From positions 1,659-65,658 of the forward strand of contig JAPYTQ010000029.1 of the NCBI GenBank assembly GCA_029941905.1: 64,000 bases of DNA, given 5' to 3'. Each line of letters starts with the position of its first letter. Within the stretch, counting starts at the first letter, position 1. Positions 12,938-18,998 of the stretch are shown here, piece by piece. The notes under the pieces were generated by a model. It was not told where the DNA came from. It saw only the letters and a list, made by a program, of their open reading frames with translations, and did no database searches. The position numbers and the translations under genes are program-made. Source of the stretch: Pseudomonadales bacterium (GTDB lineage: Bacteria; Pseudomonadota; Gammaproteobacteria; Pseudomonadales; Azotimanducaceae).

Positions 12938-13708
12938 CTATCTGTTCGGGTTTAGCCGGGCCATTAAACCACCGATACCGCGAACCAGCCATCTGGGCTG
13001 ATGCTTGGCCCAGGTAATAGCAGCCTGATTGGTGACGCCGGGAATTCTGATTACTTCACGATTCATTAGCGCCGCGTAACCTTGTTGTGCAACATCTTCG
13101 GGGCTGGACATTAAGAAAGCCGGTACATTGGCGCTTTGAACATCTTCAATCATGTCCGTGCGGGTTATACCCGGACAAAGCGCTGTGACAAACACCCCGG
13201 TACCTTTTAGTTCTTCAGACAGGGATTCGGTTAGCGAAAGTACATAGGCCTTGCTGGCGGCATAAGCGGATAATGAGGGGACCGGTTGAAAGGAGGCCAC
13301 GGAGGCTACATTGAGTATTCTGCCGCTACCCCTGTTAATCATCCCTGGCAGAAAATTGCGCGTCAGCCTGGTCAGGCAAAAAATGTTGAGTGCGATCAGG
13401 TTCTCAATATCTGCCAGTGCCTGGTCATGAAATGAACCAGGGTAGGCAATTCCTGCATTGTTTACCAGCACATCAATGCGGGTATCGGAGAGTGAAGAGA
13501 CAAGGTGGTCAATGCCTTGATTCGTTGAGAGATCGCAGTCAATGACGTCGACATTGACCAATGACCTCAACTCGTCACCAATCTCTTCCAGCTTCGACAA
13601 TCTGCGTGCGGTGATCACAAGATCGAAGCCATTGGCCGCGAATTGACGTGCCAGAGCTTCGCCGATTCCCGACGAAGCACCCGTGATCAGCGCTGTGCCT
13701 TTAGTCAT
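12938..13708 (-). CDS. short-chain dehydrogenase/reductase (SDR)
   Basis: TGASSGIGEALA cofactor motif, NNAG, and a YAASK catalytic motif. Confidence 0.85.
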   Translation of the reverse strand: MTKGTALITGASSGIGEALARQFAANGFDLVITARRLSKLEEIGDELRSLVNVDVIDCDLSTNQGIDHLVSSLSDTRIDVLVNNAGIAYPGSFHDQALADIENLIALNIFCLTRLTRNFLPGMINRGSGRILNVASVASFQPVPSLSAYAASKAYVLSLTESLSEELKGTGVFVTALCPGITRTDMIEDVQSANVPAFLMSSPEDVAQQGYAALMNREVIRIPGVTNQAAITWAKHQPRWLVRGIGGLMARLNPNR

Positions 13709-13952
13709 CTGATTTCGTTTTCTCTTGCTCGTTGCCAGGTGTCCCGCCCATCATCTTTTGCAACCAGCTCTGATAAGCCATCATCGGTTGCATGGCGCTA
13801 TCCACGATGTCCTTGTATTGGGTCTGGTTGGAGTCTTTGAGAAATTGTTGCGCCCGATTGAGCATTTCCTGTTGCAGGCTCTCTACATTTGGAAGGCCTA
13901 TAAAACTACGCCGCTCTTCCGGGGTGATGTCCACATCGATTGTGATCTTCAT
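13701..13952 (-). CDS. small conserved protein often found beside phasin/PHA genes (DUF6489-like)
   Basis: MKITIDVDITPEERRSFIGLPNVESLQQEM... ATG 13952 has an AAGGA RBS. The gene overlaps the SDR start by 8 nt. The family name is recalled from memory, not searched. Confidence 0.5.
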   Translation of the reverse strand: MKITIDVDITPEERRSFIGLPNVESLQQEMLNRAQQFLKDSNQTQYKDIVDSAMQPMMAYQSWLQKMMGGTPGNEQEKTKSDD

Positions 13953-14048
13953 CAGTCGCCATCCTTTAGCCATAAACTGGGGAGTCTATTACAACCCAAA
14001 AACAGAAGGGCGCATAGCGCCCTTTAAAAATGCTGAATGACCGGGGGA

Positions 14049-14363
14049 TTAGCCATCAGTATTTGGTGCAAAAACTTGCTGAACTGCGTTAGTAGTATCT
14101 TCTACCGAGCTTTTCAAAATATCTGCCTGTACCTGGGTAGCATCCTTGATGCCGCTCCAGAGTGTCTCGGCATATTCACGTTGCAGTTCGATGAAACCCG
14201 CCACGTCTTTCACTTCAGGTAATTTGCTGGAGAAGTCACTGTTAAGTTCAAGATACTTGCGAAAATTTTCTTGCTGACTACTCATCAATGCCTGAAACAT
14301 ATTCTGGTTGATCTCGAAAAATGTCTTTCCCATTTCTGCTTGTGTCTGTAGATAACTCATCAT
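14049..14363 (-). CDS. phasin family protein
   Basis: About 100 aa, helical. The motif pattern F..NQ..F......EN..KYLELN......LPEVKDV..F..LQREY.ETLW is shared with the neighbouring paralog. Confidence 0.75.
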   Translation of the reverse strand: MMSYLQTQAEMGKTFFEINQNMFQALMSSQQENFRKYLELNSDFSSKLPEVKDVAGFIELQREYAETLWSGIKDATQVQADILKSSVEDTTNAVQQVFAPNTDG

Positions 14364-14386
14364 CTGGTCCTTTTTGTTAAGCCTAG

Positions 14387-14755
14387 TTACGCCGCTGCCT
14401 TTGCAGAGGTTTCTTCAGTTTTGGTTTCAGCTGGGGTCGCGGCTACTTCAGTTTCTTCTGCTGTCAAAGCCAGTTTCACTGCATCCCGGGTACCACTAAA
14501 CGCGCCTTTGACTATCTCTGTCTGTGCTTCAACGGCACCTCTGGCATTGTTCCAAAGTGTTTCGTTGTATTCTTTCTGTAAGCCCAGGAAATCAGAAATG
14601 CTGGTGATTTCCGGAAGTCGCTTGGCGAATTCGCGATTGGTCTCGAAATACTTGCTGATGTTCTCACGCTGGAGTTCGGCAATCTCTTTGATGGTGCTGG
14701 TGTTAATCTCGTAAAGTGACTTTCCGAGGTTGGTCTGTTTTTCAATAATGTTCAT
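14387..14755 (-). CDS. phasin family protein (tandem paralog, Ala/Glu/Thr-rich tail)
   Basis: Same motif pattern: LYEIN......ELQRENISKYFETN.EFAKRLPEITSISDFLGLQKEYNETLW. Confidence 0.75.
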   Translation of the reverse strand: MNIIEKQTNLGKSLYEINTSTIKEIAELQRENISKYFETNREFAKRLPEITSISDFLGLQKEYNETLWNNARGAVEAQTEIVKGAFSGTRDAVKLALTAEETEVAATPAETKTEETSAKAAA

Positions 14756-14784
14756 GTCGTTGTGTTTCCTGAGTTGTTCATATG

Positions 14785-14817
14785 TTGCGCTGCAGCATTA
14801 TATATTGCACTGCAACA
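14785..14817. promoter_or_regulatory. direct repeat TTGC(G/A)CTGCA(G/A)CA x2 upstream of the phasin gene (possible PhaR operator)
   Basis: TTGCGCTGCAGCA (14785-14797) and TTGCACTGCAACA (14805-14817), separated by TTATATA. Confidence 0.35.
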
Positions 14818-14922
14818 AATTCAAGCGGTTTTTCAGAATACTCGCTTATTTTTAGTGATTAGTCCGATTCAATGGCCCGGGGTCCTTCCTAAAATTTCTC
14901 ATAAGCCATTGATAAATTTAGA

Positions 14923-16431
14923 TTATGCAACCTTTGTGGGCACTTCGGCTACATCTTCAGAATCTTGATCCCCAGATAGCTCATTTTGCGTCCTGGACTG
15001 CAATTCCTGCCGTTCGATGATGTCAGTTACATTATCCGAAAGAACTAACTGCTTCAGTTCCATGAATGCGGCAACAATATCATCACGCAGAATGCTTGCG
15101 TCCGGCAGTGCTTTTTTGCATGCAGTAATACTAAAGTACAAGTCATCACAATAGCTTTGAACGGTGATGTTGAGACCCAGACCATGCGCGGGAATAGAGA
15201 CTGGATAGTGAGATAACATCTCTGCACCATTGGAGTAGAGTGTTTCACGGGGTCCGGGGACGTTCGAAATGACCAGATTGATGGGCATTGGCAGAACATC
15301 GCTCAAGCTAAGTTGCTCGTTTAGCACGGATGTCGCGGTGATCGTTGCGGGTAAACCGGGCAGTGCGACGTTAGGCTCGTATCCCTCGGCCAGTTCCGCG
15401 GTAACTTCCTTTGCTGTGTTAGCTGAGGCTTTGATTGCCAGCAACCTTGTACCAGGGTCTGCCAGATGCGTCGCCAGATTGACTTGCATCATGGTGACAT
15501 TGTTCCCCATTCCCTTATCACCGGGTTTCCTGAGGGATACGGGCGATCCCGCAATAAGTGGAGTGTCGGTCAATACGCCGAGTCGTAGCAGATAAGTTCG
15601 GAGCCCACCGGCGCAAACTGACATGAAAACGTCATTCACTTTGCAATCTAGTGACTTACCGATCTGCTTTGTCTGAGACAGTGACAGCTTACCGCAGGCA
15701 TATTCGCGGGTGGCACCGATTGAGCGGCTAAAGGAGGTGGTGGGTGCAACGTCGTTCAACGCACCAAAAGATTTTGATGGATCGATTGCTCTCTGGTTAA
15801 CCCGGACCATACTTTCCATGGATCCGAGATAGCGACTGACACTGTCGATCTGGAAGCTGACAAGATTTTCCCATGCCATGGTGAACAAATTGATTGAACT
15901 TTTCTGTTCACCGTCGAGCAGGTCCGCAGGAACCTGGTGAACCGGGTGATCCGGTGAGTTGTCCATCAACAGCATGGTGGCCGCCTGTCCAGCCATGCCG
16001 TCCAGGCAAGCGTGGTGGGCCTGGTTGTAGTAGGCGATATTTCCGTCTTCGAGACCTGTTATCACGTAAACAGCCCACAGCGGCTTGCTTCGATCCATGG
16101 GTGCGCTGTGCAATTGCGCGACTTTCTGTTCGAGCTGGCGCATGCTGCCCGGCGCATCAAGGGGAACCTCAATGATGTGGTTTTCGATATTGAATTCAGT
16201 ATCTGTGATCCACACCGGGTGGTCCAGATTGAACGGTGTGAACTTTATTTTCCGTGTCAGGTATGGGACAAGATGGATTCGGCCGTTCAGAAATGTTTTC
16301 AGGCCGTTGCAGAACTCACTCGCCGATGTGTTCTGCGGCAGGGCAAATTGTTGCAGGGACGCGACGTGATTGAACACCGTGTCTGTTTCTGAATAAAGGA
16401 AGTTTGCATCCAGGGCACCAAGTTTTTCCAT
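14923..16431 (-). CDS. wax ester synthase / diacylglycerol acyltransferase (WS/DGAT)
   Basis: HHACLDG active-site motif (HHxxxDG), an N-terminal LDANFLY motif, and about 500 aa. ATG 16431 is preferred (GGAG upstream); the ORF extends to 16452. Confidence 0.85.
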   Translation of the reverse strand: MEKLGALDANFLYSETDTVFNHVASLQQFALPQNTSASEFCNGLKTFLNGRIHLVPYLTRKIKFTPFNLDHPVWITDTEFNIENHIIEVPLDAPGSMRQLEQKVAQLHSAPMDRSKPLWAVYVITGLEDGNIAYYNQAHHACLDGMAGQAATMLLMDNSPDHPVHQVPADLLDGEQKSSINLFTMAWENLVSFQIDSVSRYLGSMESMVRVNQRAIDPSKSFGALNDVAPTTSFSRSIGATREYACGKLSLSQTKQIGKSLDCKVNDVFMSVCAGGLRTYLLRLGVLTDTPLIAGSPVSLRKPGDKGMGNNVTMMQVNLATHLADPGTRLLAIKASANTAKEVTAELAEGYEPNVALPGLPATITATSVLNEQLSLSDVLPMPINLVISNVPGPRETLYSNGAEMLSHYPVSIPAHGLGLNITVQSYCDDLYFSITACKKALPDASILRDDIVAAFMELKQLVLSDNVTDIIERQELQSRTQNELSGDQDSEDVAEVPTKVA

Positions 16432-16806
16432 GTTCTTGTCTCCAGTTTTCAATAGTCGATTTCCACATACGCACTAACGCCTGCACTGAACAGCGCCACG
16501 CTATCGATGTAATGCTATAAAAATAAGATGGGTATCCGTGTCGCGAGGTTCCAGACGCTTTTTGGGGTGACTGCGGGGACCTGCTGTGGACAACGAGCGC
16601 GGATTATAAACGGCTCTTGGTTTGAGTCAACCACTTTTTGTGCATCGCGCAATAAAGTTCAATTTTGTGAAGCTGTTAACAAATCTGCGACCTGGAGCAG
16701 CGGTTAAATGCTTGATTCCATTGTGTAAGTCGGACAAACTCAATCACGTTTTTCACTGCAACATAGCGCACTCTCTCAGTATGTGTAAGTACGTAAAATA
16801 TGAGGT

Positions 16807-17607
16807 ATGGATTTGTACGAAGAACTTGATGTAGAAAGTTATCGCGTTGAAACTCCATCGATTTTCAATTCGTTAACAGAAATTCCAAGGACACTCCTGG
16901 AAATTGGCACGCTTTCGATTAGCTTTCCAGTGCTGTCCAGCTTACCCAAGGGAGACAAACACCCCGTCATGCTTGTCCCAGGGTTTATGGCAGGTGATGA
17001 GTCAACTGTGGTGTTGCGGCGCTATCTTTCGTGTATGGGATACAAACCTTCTGGTTGGGGTTTGGGAAGAAATACCGGGCATCCAGAAATCATAGAGCGA
17101 ACCTTGATTGAAAAATTTCATCAACTATTTGAGGAACATCAACAGAAAGTTAGCCTGATTGGTCAAAGTTTAGGTGGTATATTTGCGAGAGAGCTGGGCC
17201 GTTTATTTCCTGATAAGGTCCGGCAGGTGATTACCCTCGGTAGCCCTTTTTCGATGGCCAATGGCGGGGGGTCGAATCTCCTGGTGCAGAAGTTGTTTGA
17301 ACAACAGTCAAGGATGAGCGTTGAAATGATGCGTGAACGTCTGGAGACAGATCAAAGCCCACCGATTCCCCTGACCGCGGTTTATAGCCGTGGTGATGGC
17401 GTTGTACACTGGCGCGGTTGTATGGAAACTGAACTGGACCACCAGACCCAGAATATTGAGGTATTCGGAAGCCACTGCGGTATGGGTTTTAATCCCGCTG
17501 TTTATTACATTATTGCAGATAGGCTTGCCCAGCCGGAGAATAGATGGAGACTGTTTCAGTCGCGGGTCCCTGGTGTGGTGCACCCGATGAATGAAGACGA
17601 GAATTAA
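16807..17607 (+). CDS. alpha/beta-hydrolase (lipase/esterase-like)
   Basis: GQSLGG nucleophile elbow (GxSxG) and PVMLVPGF before it. Confidence 0.7.
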   Translation: MDLYEELDVESYRVETPSIFNSLTEIPRTLLEIGTLSISFPVLSSLPKGDKHPVMLVPGFMAGDESTVVLRRYLSCMGYKPSGWGLGRNTGHPEIIERTLIEKFHQLFEEHQQKVSLIGQSLGGIFARELGRLFPDKVRQVITLGSPFSMANGGGSNLLVQKLFEQQSRMSVEMMRERLETDQSPPIPLTAVYSRGDGVVHWRGCMETELDHQTQNIEVFGSHCGMGFNPAVYYIIADRLAQPENRWRLFQSRVPGVVHPMNEDEN

Positions 17608-17624
17608 GAGCCTGGGAATTCACC

Positions 17625-18068
17625 ATGCGCGAGTTCAAAAAGTATCCCAATCGTCGGCTCTATGACATTCAGGAGAGCCAGTACGTCACGGTGGAAGATA
17701 TCCGCAAGATCGTCCTCGCAGGTGAGACGATTCTGGTGATAGATTCCAAATCAGAAAAGGACCTGACCCGTTCGGTGCTGTTGCAGATTATTTCAGAGCA
17801 GGAAGGTGAAGGCCATGAGCCAATATTGACGAATCGTGTTCTGGAACAACTGGTCCGCTTTTATGGGGCACCGATGCAAAGTGTAGTGAGTCGATATATC
17901 GAACAGAGCATTACAACTTTTTTGGATCACCAGGAAAAATATCGATCCAGGATGCAGGATCTGGCAGGTGCGGAGCCTATGGCGTTGATGCGTAAGGCAT
18001 TGGAACAGAATATGGAATTCTGGAATCGTCTCGCGACAAATACTCAGGACAGATCCAGAGAAGACTAG
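17625..18068 (+). CDS. phaR: polyhydroxyalkanoate synthesis repressor PhaR
   Basis: The N-terminus KKYPNRRLYDIQESQYVTVEDIRKIV and LLQIISEQE are hallmark PhaR motifs. Confidence 0.85.
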   Translation: MREFKKYPNRRLYDIQESQYVTVEDIRKIVLAGETILVIDSKSEKDLTRSVLLQIISEQEGEGHEPILTNRVLEQLVRFYGAPMQSVVSRYIEQSITTFLDHQEKYRSRMQDLAGAEPMALMRKALEQNMEFWNRLATNTQDRSRED

Positions 18069-18742
18069 GGGGTCCCCCAGTTTGCCAGTAACGGGTTGAG
18101 CTCATTGAAAGCATCAATGGTTAGTGCGGCGTCCGCCAGCTCGCTCGGCTCAACGTAAGGACTGTTTACGGCAATCACTTGCATACCCGCAGCCCGGGCG
18201 GCCCTGATGCCGCTCGGTGAATCTTCGATGGCGATGCAATGGTGTGGGTTCACCCGGAGTTTCTCAGCGCAGAGCAGGAATATGTCAGGATCAGGTTTGC
18301 CACGTTGTAGTTCCGGGTGGTCACCACAAACCACCTGCTGGAAGAAAGTACCCCAGGGTTTTCGACTGAGTTTCAGGTCGCACAAGTGCTGGTGAGAACT
18401 CGTCGCCAGACCGAAGGGAATTCCGGACTCCGACAGGTCGGTAATAAACTGTCCGGCCCCTTCTATTTCCGGTGTGTCCTCAAACAGCTGCCGCAGAAAG
18501 ACCTCGCGGGTGGAAAGAAACGCGTCCACTGACATGGGTAAGTCAAAATGGTCGATGGTGATCCGGGCGCTGCGTCGCGAATCACCCCCCATGCACTGTT
18601 TTTTGAGTGCCATCGTGAATTCTGCATCAAAAGGATCAAGCACCTTCTGCGTGGCAATTGTATACAGAGGTTCTGTGTCGAGCAGGGTTCCGTCCATGTC
18701 AAAAATGAGCGCCGCAGGGGTCTTAGCTAATGCCGGGTTCAT
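18065..18742 (-). CDS. HAD-IA family hydrolase (beta-phosphoglucomutase-like)
   Basis: Motif I FDMDGTLLDTE, GLATSS, and motif IV EDSPSGIRAARAAGM. The internal ATG 18742 places motif I near the N-terminus. Confidence 0.75.
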   Translation of the reverse strand: MNPALAKTPAALIFDMDGTLLDTEPLYTIATQKVLDPFDAEFTMALKKQCMGGDSRRSARITIDHFDLPMSVDAFLSTREVFLRQLFEDTPEIEGAGQFITDLSESGIPFGLATSSHQHLCDLKLSRKPWGTFFQQVVCGDHPELQRGKPDPDIFLLCAEKLRVNPHHCIAIEDSPSGIRAARAAGMQVIAVNSPYVEPSELADAALTIDAFNELNPLLANWGTP

Positions 18743-18776
18743 TTTTCTGATACTCGTGATTTTCACAGGGTGCAAT

Positions 18777-18998
18777 TCATAGTGTTTTGTTTGCCACAAA
18801 GGGTTGGGCGACTTCTTCGATAATTTCGTGTGGAACTGAATCGTCTTCATCGGCCACCCGGCTTTCTGCTTCAGCAGCGAGGTTCATCAATTCGAATAGA
18901 ACCCCGGGGGTCATCTGAAAATGGTACCCCTTTTCAATGACAATGTGAGTAAGCAGGAACGACAGTGCTTCTTCCTTGGAGATTCGGCTGGAGCGCAT
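18777..18998 (-). CDS. hypothetical small acidic protein
   Basis: ORF only. No clear RBS and no recognisable family. Confidence 0.3.
   Translation of the reverse strand: MRSSRISKEEALSFLLTHIVIEKGYHFQMTPGVLFELMNLAAEAESRVADEDDSVPHEIIEEVAQPFVANKTL

Follow-up and report, generated by a model that had tools for sequence, protein, structure and literature searches.

The polyhydroxyalkanoate (PHA) granule circuit, consisting of phasins and their regulator PhaR, is encoded directly beside genes of neutral-lipid metabolism in a 64,000-nucleotide stretch of the genome of a marine gammaproteobacterium from the order Pseudomonadales, family Azotimanducaceae (assembly GCA_029941905.1, contig JAPYTQ010000029.1, positions 1,659 to 65,658; this whole stretch is hereafter called the window). 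Two phasin genes and phaR flank there a gene for a wax ester synthase/diacylglycerol acyltransferase (WS/DGAT) and a gene for a lipase-like alpha/beta hydrolase. We read the locus as a conserved cluster for carbon storage that joins the PhaR-phasin circuit physically to neutral-lipid genes, both of which may form a mixed regulon for PHA and neutral lipids, and we put the probability of this reading at about 0.55.

Protein identities were obtained from the list of open reading frames (ORFs) and from Pfam and NCBIfam profile scans of the window (Table 1). A first-pass annotation of this DNA had named seven genes, i.e. a short-chain dehydrogenase/reductase (SDR), a DUF6489-like protein, two phasins, a WS/DGAT with the HHxxxDG motif, a GxSxG hydrolase and PhaR, and all of them are confirmed by ORFs and profile hidden Markov models, the DUF6489-like match being marginal. 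Its remark that the window lacks a PHA synthase holds as well, as no PhaC is encoded on this contig (C29). PhaR carries both domains of its family (PHB_acc_N, PF07879, residues 5-62, 89 bits; PHB_acc, PF05233, residues 68-107, 62 bits). Similarly, both domains of the WS/DGAT score above their cut-offs (WS_DGAT_cat, PF03007, 186 bits; WS_DGAT_C, PF06974, 106 bits), and its active-site motif reads HHACLDG. The phasins, of which phasin A has an acidic, Ala/Thr/Glu-rich tail, stay below the cut-off of 30.2 bits in the phasin model TIGR01841 (25.4 bits for phasin B and 22.1 bits for phasin A). Phasin B starts 23 bp after phasin A, so that the two are probably co-transcribed, and a terminator-like hairpin behind phasin B probably marks the end of their transcript. 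On the other side of the cluster phaR begins 17 nt past the hydrolase stop codon on the same strand; the co-orientation of the two genes had been recognized correctly, while their gap had been given as 18 bp.

The regulatory link is clearest at the phasin promoter. Both of its PhaR boxes, one lying between the -35 and -10 elements and the other just downstream of -10, match exactly the footprinted PhbF/PhaR operator TGNTGCNNNGCAA, TG[N]TGC[N]3GCAA. This motif was derived with MEME and confirmed by DNase footprinting for PhbF, the PhaR orthologue of Herbaspirillum, and is related to the CTGC-N3-GCAG motif of Rhodobacter PhaR (PMC3206438). Genome-wide (5.78 Mb) the operator has 84 exact matches, among which the phasin boxes are the only pair within 40 bp, and the architecture of the promoter aligns gap-free, base for base, in 12 related loci. 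Since two consensus operators overlap the promoter, PhaR almost certainly represses both phasin genes of the window; these two phasins and PhaR are the sole copies in the genome.

Operators of the same type occur at further promoters of the cluster. A position weight matrix (PWM), built from 26 phasin A promoter sites only, was scanned over 140 kb of related loci, and 20 of its 21 non-training matches of at least 13.5 bits lie either before phasin B or in the spacer between the divergent WS/DGAT and hydrolase genes, regions which together account for 6.9% of the scanned sequence. The matches before phasin B again come as pairs 20 bp apart. As for the WS/DGAT, a TTGACa-17-TATAAT element is found 150-350 nt upstream of its start in the window and in 11 other loci of the gene orders described below as types A and B. 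In the relatives a GCAnnGCAcc-type box stands just upstream of the -35 element, and most loci possess another one just downstream of -10. With the WS/DGAT promoter flanked by PhaR-type boxes, lipid synthesis probably belongs to the same regulon in these relatives, i.e. the PhaR circuit and the lipid genes are probably joined there in regulation as well.

The window itself is less clear in this respect. Its near-consensus WS/DGAT promoter sits 150 nt upstream of the start codon, and the PhaR-like box just upstream of -35 is degenerate, while the box that relatives have downstream of -10 is not recognisable. Because the PWM finds only weak sites in the spacer between WS/DGAT and hydrolase of the window, the claim that PhaR controls the WS/DGAT rests on the relatives, where it is supported, and given the degenerate operator such direct control is uncertain in this genome. 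On the hydrolase side of the spacer, a PhaR box with one mismatch, TGTTGCAGTGAAA, lies 44-56 nt upstream of the start codon and is a candidate autoregulatory site of the hydrolase-phaR operon. A similar TTGCAtTGAAC element precedes the hydrolase in the related loci L012, L020, L040 and L042.

The association of these genes recurs well beyond the window. With the hydrolase as query 33 loci were retrieved, all from metagenome-assembled genomes (MAGs) that belong to the Pseudomonadales as defined by GTDB (OM182, K189A, Azotimanducaceae and others) or to other Proteobacteria. The cluster recurs in 13 loci, 11 being complete, at 50-65% identity. The window and 11 loci share the order SDR-DUF6489-phasin-phasin-WS/DGAT, divergent from hydrolase-PhaR (type A). 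Type B (L015, L018) consists of a phasin and WS/DGAT divergent from the hydrolase, phasin A being the one retained, and type C (L017) equals type A without the WS/DGAT. About 17 more distant loci (type D) have a hydrolase gene facing a convergent DUF6489 gene and followed by PhaR, with a WS/DGAT no more than 3 kb away in L027, L028 and L031. In Oceanicoccus sagamiensis (type E) WS/DGAT and hydrolase run in one direction towards a convergent PhaR gene, which in turn is divergent from the genes of a 130-amino-acid (aa) protein and of a phasin-like protein. Finally, L031 (MAG JAZBPO010000093.1, 6001-12297) extends the type D order by a phasin, a second hydrolase, a WS/DGAT, a PhaE-like protein and a class III PhaC (type F). 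These last five genes are co-directional and tightly spaced behind a PhaR-box phasin promoter, and the PhaC is 65% identical to one of the PhaC homologues of the window's genome (on contig C7, see below). A PhaC inside the locus was found in one of 36 related loci, L031 alone. Recurrence of the same families in varied orders is what functional coupling usually leaves behind, and such reshuffled, yet linked, sets are present in L027, L028, L031, L036, O. sagamiensis, G037 and G204. Judged from gene order, the linkage of PhaR and phasins with WS/DGAT and hydrolase is not accidental.

The hydrolase connects this cluster with neutral lipids in its own right. Its catalytic triad, Ser121 (in the GQSLGG motif), Asp197 and His223, is invariant in 23 homologues, and the AlphaFold model (predicted local distance difference test score, pLDDT, 79; predicted template modelling score, pTM, 0.81) finds its best Foldseek matches in Lip_vut1, Bacillus subtilis LipA, Est30, FphH, monoacylglycerol lipases and CALB; the predicted fold is that of a minimal alpha/beta hydrolase of the lipase/esterase type. 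Databases name the family 'alpha/beta hydrolase', 'esterase' or, wrongly and by transfer, 'pimeloyl-ACP methyl ester carboxylesterase'. A survey of 301 evenly drawn genomes of the order detected the family in 70, every one of which also has a WS/DGAT (versus 132 of 301 overall). The same pattern is seen at higher ranks, where all 33 genera with the hydrolase fall within the 56 genera with WS/DGAT (of 135), and all 20 families within 30 (of 58). PhaR, by contrast, accompanies the hydrolase in 7 of 70 genomes versus 48 of 301 overall, and PhaC-like genes occur in 28 of 70 genomes with the hydrolase versus 110 of 231 without it, i.e. they show no association. Paralogues of the hydrolase lie directly beside a WS/DGAT in L031, L036 and G250. 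The family is tied to WS/DGAT and is independent of PhaR and PhaC, and we propose that the enzyme mobilises stored neutral lipid. An assignment as PHA depolymerase was rejected, since the hydrolase does not match the depolymerase models (TIGR01849, TIGR01840 and related ones), with BioH as its sole NCBIfam match (19.5 bits), and does not co-occur with PhaC or PhaR.

Two further arrangements involve these families. The window's own genome (G000) encodes at L047 (G000:C24, 6867-8305) a hydrolase paralogue with 44% identity, and a gene for a TetR-family regulator overlaps its end, a layout which mirrors the hydrolase-PhaR operon with another regulator. In several genomes of the order, PhaC-like alpha/beta hydrolases of ~395 aa (TIGR01836 positions 55-350, E ~1e-47) directly adjoin a WS/DGAT (G133:C1:1284015-1286542; G171:C4:174391-176918; G268:C10:170089-172622; G107:C3:91557-96265), which may represent another recurrent pairing of neutral-lipid and PHA-like genes.

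These observations can be combined into the following model. When hydrophobic storage bodies appear in the cell, PhaR would be titrated off the DNA, as it is in producers of polyhydroxybutyrate (PHB); the titrating bodies could consist of PHA, with three PhaC homologues encoded elsewhere in the genome, or of wax ester or triacylglycerol (TAG), with the WS/DGAT adjacent. The derepressed phasins would then coat the storage bodies, lipid bodies included. The lipase-like hydrolase, probably co-transcribed with phaR, would mobilise the store, most likely neutral lipid, and so fill the role which the depolymerase has in pha clusters, and the WS/DGAT of the relatives would probably respond to the same PhaR regulon through its box-flanked promoter. 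A more far-reaching version, according to which PhaR and phasins are the native sensor and coat of wax-ester/TAG bodies in marine Gammaproteobacteria, with droplet-titrated PhaR controlling WS/DGAT, lipase and coat and with PHA being dispensable, is conceivable and is put forward here as a tentative proposal. The first-pass annotation had raised the possibility that the phasin/PhaR system coats and regulates bodies of neutral lipid, or mixed inclusions. This idea gains real support from comparison, namely from the linkage, the WS/DGAT boxes of relatives, the tie between hydrolase and WS/DGAT, and the case of O. sagamiensis; for the host genome it is not shown.

A number of points weigh against a mixed regulon, the first of which is the gene inventory of the host. 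Its 5.78-Mb assembly, which is 98% complete, contains three PhaC homologues, all on contigs other than that of the window: a 558-aa protein on C90 and a 559-aa protein on C28, both class I/II-like with a PhaC_N domain, and a 359-aa protein on C7, which is class III/IV-like (312 bits) and has the gene of a small subunit resembling PhaE/PhaR(Bmeg) in front of its own. Contigs C7 and C28 are large and have a composition typical of the genome. The earlier suggestion that PHA synthesis genes are simply encoded elsewhere is thus true as a fact, and the notion of phasins without a PHA partner was rejected for the host genome. A PhaC was likewise detected in 12 of the 13 genomes that carry the cluster or most of it; together with the PhaC genes of the host, this means that nothing forces a neutral-lipid role upon PhaR and the phasins here, and it makes mixed or co-regulated storage fit better than a PHA proteome re-used without PHA. 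Furthermore, a fatty acyl-CoA reductase of the FAR type (NAD_binding_4) was not found in the genome, which leaves wax-ester synthesis unproven. In a sister genus of the same family PhaR adjoins a class III PhaC in the canonical fashion. At the level of operators, the degenerate WS/DGAT box of the window (~3 bits) and the mismatch in the box before the hydrolase belong to the same list. Finally, synteny in the closest loci extends to neighbouring genes for an HAD protein, an ABC transporter and a 223-aa protein, and type A synteny thus partly reflects general collinearity, and the compared genomes are related to each other, so that the counts overstate independence.

Not all of the inventory points in the direction of an ordinary PHA system. 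The genome was checked for a canonical phaCAB locus, whose presence elsewhere the first-pass annotation had listed as speaking against its idea, and none was found in the 5.78-Mb assembly. Nor was a PhaB equivalog found genome-wide, the best match to TIGR01829 scoring 251.8 bits against a cut-off of 302.1; at least 52 SDR genes of the genome match the PhaB model at E <= 1e-30, and none reaches the equivalog cut-off. PhaR boxes are present upstream of none of the three phaC loci, and none precedes the hydrolase paralogue or the second of the two WS/DGAT genes of the genome, the first being that of the window. At locus L007 (G000:C28, 8251-11342) one class I/II-like PhaC of the genome is followed ~390 bp downstream by a PlsC-like acyltransferase of 340 aa.

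The strongest alternative is an ordinary PHA granule regulon, in which PhaR and phasins serve PHA only, and WS/DGAT and hydrolase are uncoupled neighbours that share at most the same nutrient conditions. Besides the three PhaC homologues of the host and the 12 of 13 cluster genomes with PhaC, it can draw on the sample of the order, where 43 of the 48 genomes with PhaR have a PhaC-like gene, and on the degenerate WS/DGAT operator and the syntenic flanking genes of the window. It does not account, however, for a linkage that persists through at least five different gene orders, for the PhaR-type boxes flanking the WS/DGAT promoter in relatives, or for a phaR gene in one operon with a hydrolase whose family follows WS/DGAT, rather than the PHA genes, in its distribution, and O. 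sagamiensis keeps the module without a PhaC. We consider an exclusive PHA function unlikely.

The opposite extreme is a full repurposing, under which PhaR and phasins sense and coat wax ester or TAG only and have no role in PHA, the PhaC homologues being independent of them or acting on something else. One case that speaks for it is O. sagamiensis (G086). Its complete 4.47-Mb genome encodes an equivalog-level PhaR, the hydrolase, a WS/DGAT and a weak phasin-like gene, and TGTGC-N3-GCACA palindromes flank the promoter of the genes for the 130-aa protein and the phasin-like protein. No PhaC was found in this genome with TIGR01836, PF07167 or two PhaC protein queries, searches which do match its congeners and thereby provide a positive control. 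The phasin-like proteins of O. sagamiensis have no significant similarity to the window phasins, and one of them shows a Phasin_2 match only below threshold. No other single observation argues as strongly as this species that the circuit can work without PHA, a recent loss of phaC being possible. Among the 13 cluster genomes the fragmentary MAG G308 is the exception, having four WS/DGAT genes and no detectable PhaC. Full repurposing would also agree with the count of PhaR boxes in the host (none at three phaC loci versus two at the phasin promoter) and with the missing PhaB equivalog. However, phaC genes of model organisms commonly are without PhaR sites, PhaC accompanies the cluster in all but one of its genomes, and in L031 WS/DGAT and PhaEC stand in one string behind a PhaR-box phasin promoter, which suggests joint rather than exclusive use. 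Complete exclusion of PHA from the system appears quite unlikely.

PhaR without PhaC is also seen at L069 (G144:C3, 4020-7355), where a PhaR of 101 aa, comprising the N-terminal DNA-binding domain only, is encoded between genes for an MFS-PlsC fusion and a PlsC-type acyltransferase. The genus has neither a PhaC-like gene nor a WS/DGAT and is among the exceptions in the sample of PhaR genomes; PhaR-family regulators may control glycerolipid acyltransferases there.

Lastly, the hydrolase might be a new intracellular depolymerase of PHA or its oligomers and the WS/DGAT might act on PHA-related substrates, e.g. by acylating hydroxy-termini, in a cluster specific to PHA, but while depolymerase genes sometimes occur beside phaR and WS/DGAT enzymes are promiscuous acyltransferases, this is very improbable for a hydrolase that resembles minimal lipases and esterases in its fold, matches no depolymerase model and belongs to a family found in 63 genomes without PhaR, in 42 without a PhaC-like gene and in none without WS/DGAT.

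The SDR gene is syntenic in 11 related loci (61-69% identity), and the NCBIfam scan gave no assignment to a specific enzyme, the best match, mycolate reductase, scoring 198 bits under a cut-off of 380; a function as fatty aldehyde/acyl or 3-ketoacyl reductase is only a guess. The stop region of the DUF6489-like gene and the SDR start share 8 bp, which makes translational coupling of the pair probable. The marginal PF20099 match of the DUF6489-like protein covers profile positions 1-33 of 80 only, and the real start is likely the internal Met at residue 8. A homologue recurs in the more distant genomes on the opposite strand between hydrolase and phaR (tblastn, loci L021-L041). Downstream of phaR lies a gene for an HAD-IA phosphatase-like protein. 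Bacterial TAG synthesis lacks a known phosphatidate phosphatase, a part for which HAD phosphatases have been put forward (PMC10351704). The HAD-IA gene stands beside or near phaR in 11 related loci; its membership in the system is uncertain, and a role of the phosphatidate-phosphatase type is speculation.

Table 1. Genes and regulatory elements of the storage cluster and its neighbour in the window (positions count from the first nucleotide of the window).
Feature	Position	Strand	Evidence and remarks
SDR, 256 aa	12938-13708	-	adh_short, E = 6e-52
DUF6489-like small protein, 90 aa	13701-13973	-	PF20099, 24.7 bits (cut-off 23.6)
Terminator-like hairpin	14006-14024	-	8-bp stem (6 G-C pairs) with a T-run behind it; downstream of phasin B
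Phasin B, 104 aa	14049-14363	-	Phasin_2 (PF09361), 48.5 bits (cut-off 24.9)
Phasin A, 122 aa	14387-14755	-	Phasin_2, 31.8 bits (cut-off 24.9)
Phasin promoter	14783-14824	-	-35 TTGAAT 14824-14819; -10 TATAAT 14802-14797; promoter scan 10/12
PhaR box TGCTGCAGCGCAA	14785-14797	-	direct repeat of the following box, 20 bp apart
PhaR box TGTTGCAGTGCAA	14805-14817	-	direct repeat of the preceding box
WS/DGAT-family acyltransferase, 509 aa	14923-16452	-	TIGR02946, 379 bits (cut-off 310)
WS/DGAT sigma-70 promoter, near-consensus	16603-16652	-	-35 TTGACT 16630-16625; -10 TATAAT 16608-16603; promoter scan 11/12
Degenerate PhaR-like box TTGTGCATCGCGCAA	16638-16652	-	just upstream of the WS/DGAT -35; PWM ~3 bits
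One-mismatch PhaR box TGTTGCAGTGAAA	16751-16763	-	upstream of the hydrolase; PWM 12.6 bits
Alpha/beta hydrolase, 266 aa	16807-17607	+	GQSLGG motif; weak matches to PGAP1, Abhydrolase_1 and Palm_thioest
PhaR, 147 aa	17625-18068	+	TIGR01848, 130.7 bits (cut-off 109.45), equivalog level
HAD-IA phosphatase-like gene	18065-18850	-	HAD_2, 106 bits; convergent with phaR, stops overlap by 4 bp

To our knowledge, the building, coating and regulation of wax-ester and TAG bodies are largely unknown in Gram-negative bacteria, and the sole droplet-sensing repressor worked out so far is MLDSR of Rhodococcus. If PhaR and phasins natively serve inclusions of neutral lipid or of mixed type, the best-understood granule circuit of bacteria would cover one more class of storage compounds, and the binding of heterologous phasins to TAG bodies would be accounted for. 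It would also single out a candidate family of dedicated lipases with more than 7000 uncharacterised homologues, and provide parts for the engineering of oil production as well as markers of carbon storage in abundant marine clades. As the type strain of O. sagamiensis is in culture and its genome is complete, the question can be put to a direct test. Our literature search returned passing mentions only and no description of a native link of PhaR or phasins to WS/DGAT. One metagenome paper notes briefly that scaffolds with WS/DGAT also bear phasin or 'PHA system' genes (PMC10351704). Two precedents lend the idea plausibility, namely a Rhodococcus phasin isolated from lipid inclusions (PMC5658603) and the sequestration of the repressor MLDSR by lipid droplets (PMC5504291).

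Among known systems, AtfA of Acinetobacter baylyi and the wax ester synthases of Marinobacter belong to the same family as the WS/DGAT of the window and agree with it in two-domain architecture and HHxxxDG motif. The window enzyme differs from them by its linkage to phasin and PhaR genes; we know of no report of such a linkage for the Acinetobacter and Marinobacter enzymes, and the literature search found none either. A further difference is that no FAR-type reductase was found in the host genome. The mcl-PHA cluster of Pseudomonas (phaC1-phaZ-phaC2-phaD-phaF-phaI) likewise gathers a synthase, a hydrolase, a regulator and coat proteins at a single locus. Its window counterparts are of other kinds, however: a WS/DGAT takes the place of PhaC as synthase, a hydrolase unrelated to PhaZ that of PhaZ, PhaR that of the TetR-type regulator PhaD, and Phasin_2 proteins that of PhaF and PhaI.

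A closer parallel in logic is offered by MLDS/MLDSR of Rhodococcus jostii and by TadA, where the sequestration of a coat-gene repressor by neutral-lipid droplets couples coat synthesis to droplet formation (PMC5504291), as is proposed here for PhaR. Rhodococcus is an actinobacterium, and its proteins come from unrelated families, whereas the parts in the window are bona fide PHA-type proteins. With the PhaR-PhaP circuit of the PHB producers Paracoccus denitrificans, Cupriavidus necator, Rhodobacter sphaeroides and Herbaspirillum seropedicae (PhbF), finally, the window shares an equivalog-level PhaR, Phasin_2 phasins, TGC-N3-GCA operators overlapping the phasin promoter (PMC3206438) and, ahead of the operon with phaR, a probable site of autoregulation. 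It departs from this circuit in having no adjacent phaC, phaA or phaB, and in placing phaR second in an operon that is led by a lipase-like hydrolase and runs divergent from a WS/DGAT, whose promoter bears PhaR-type operators in the relatives.

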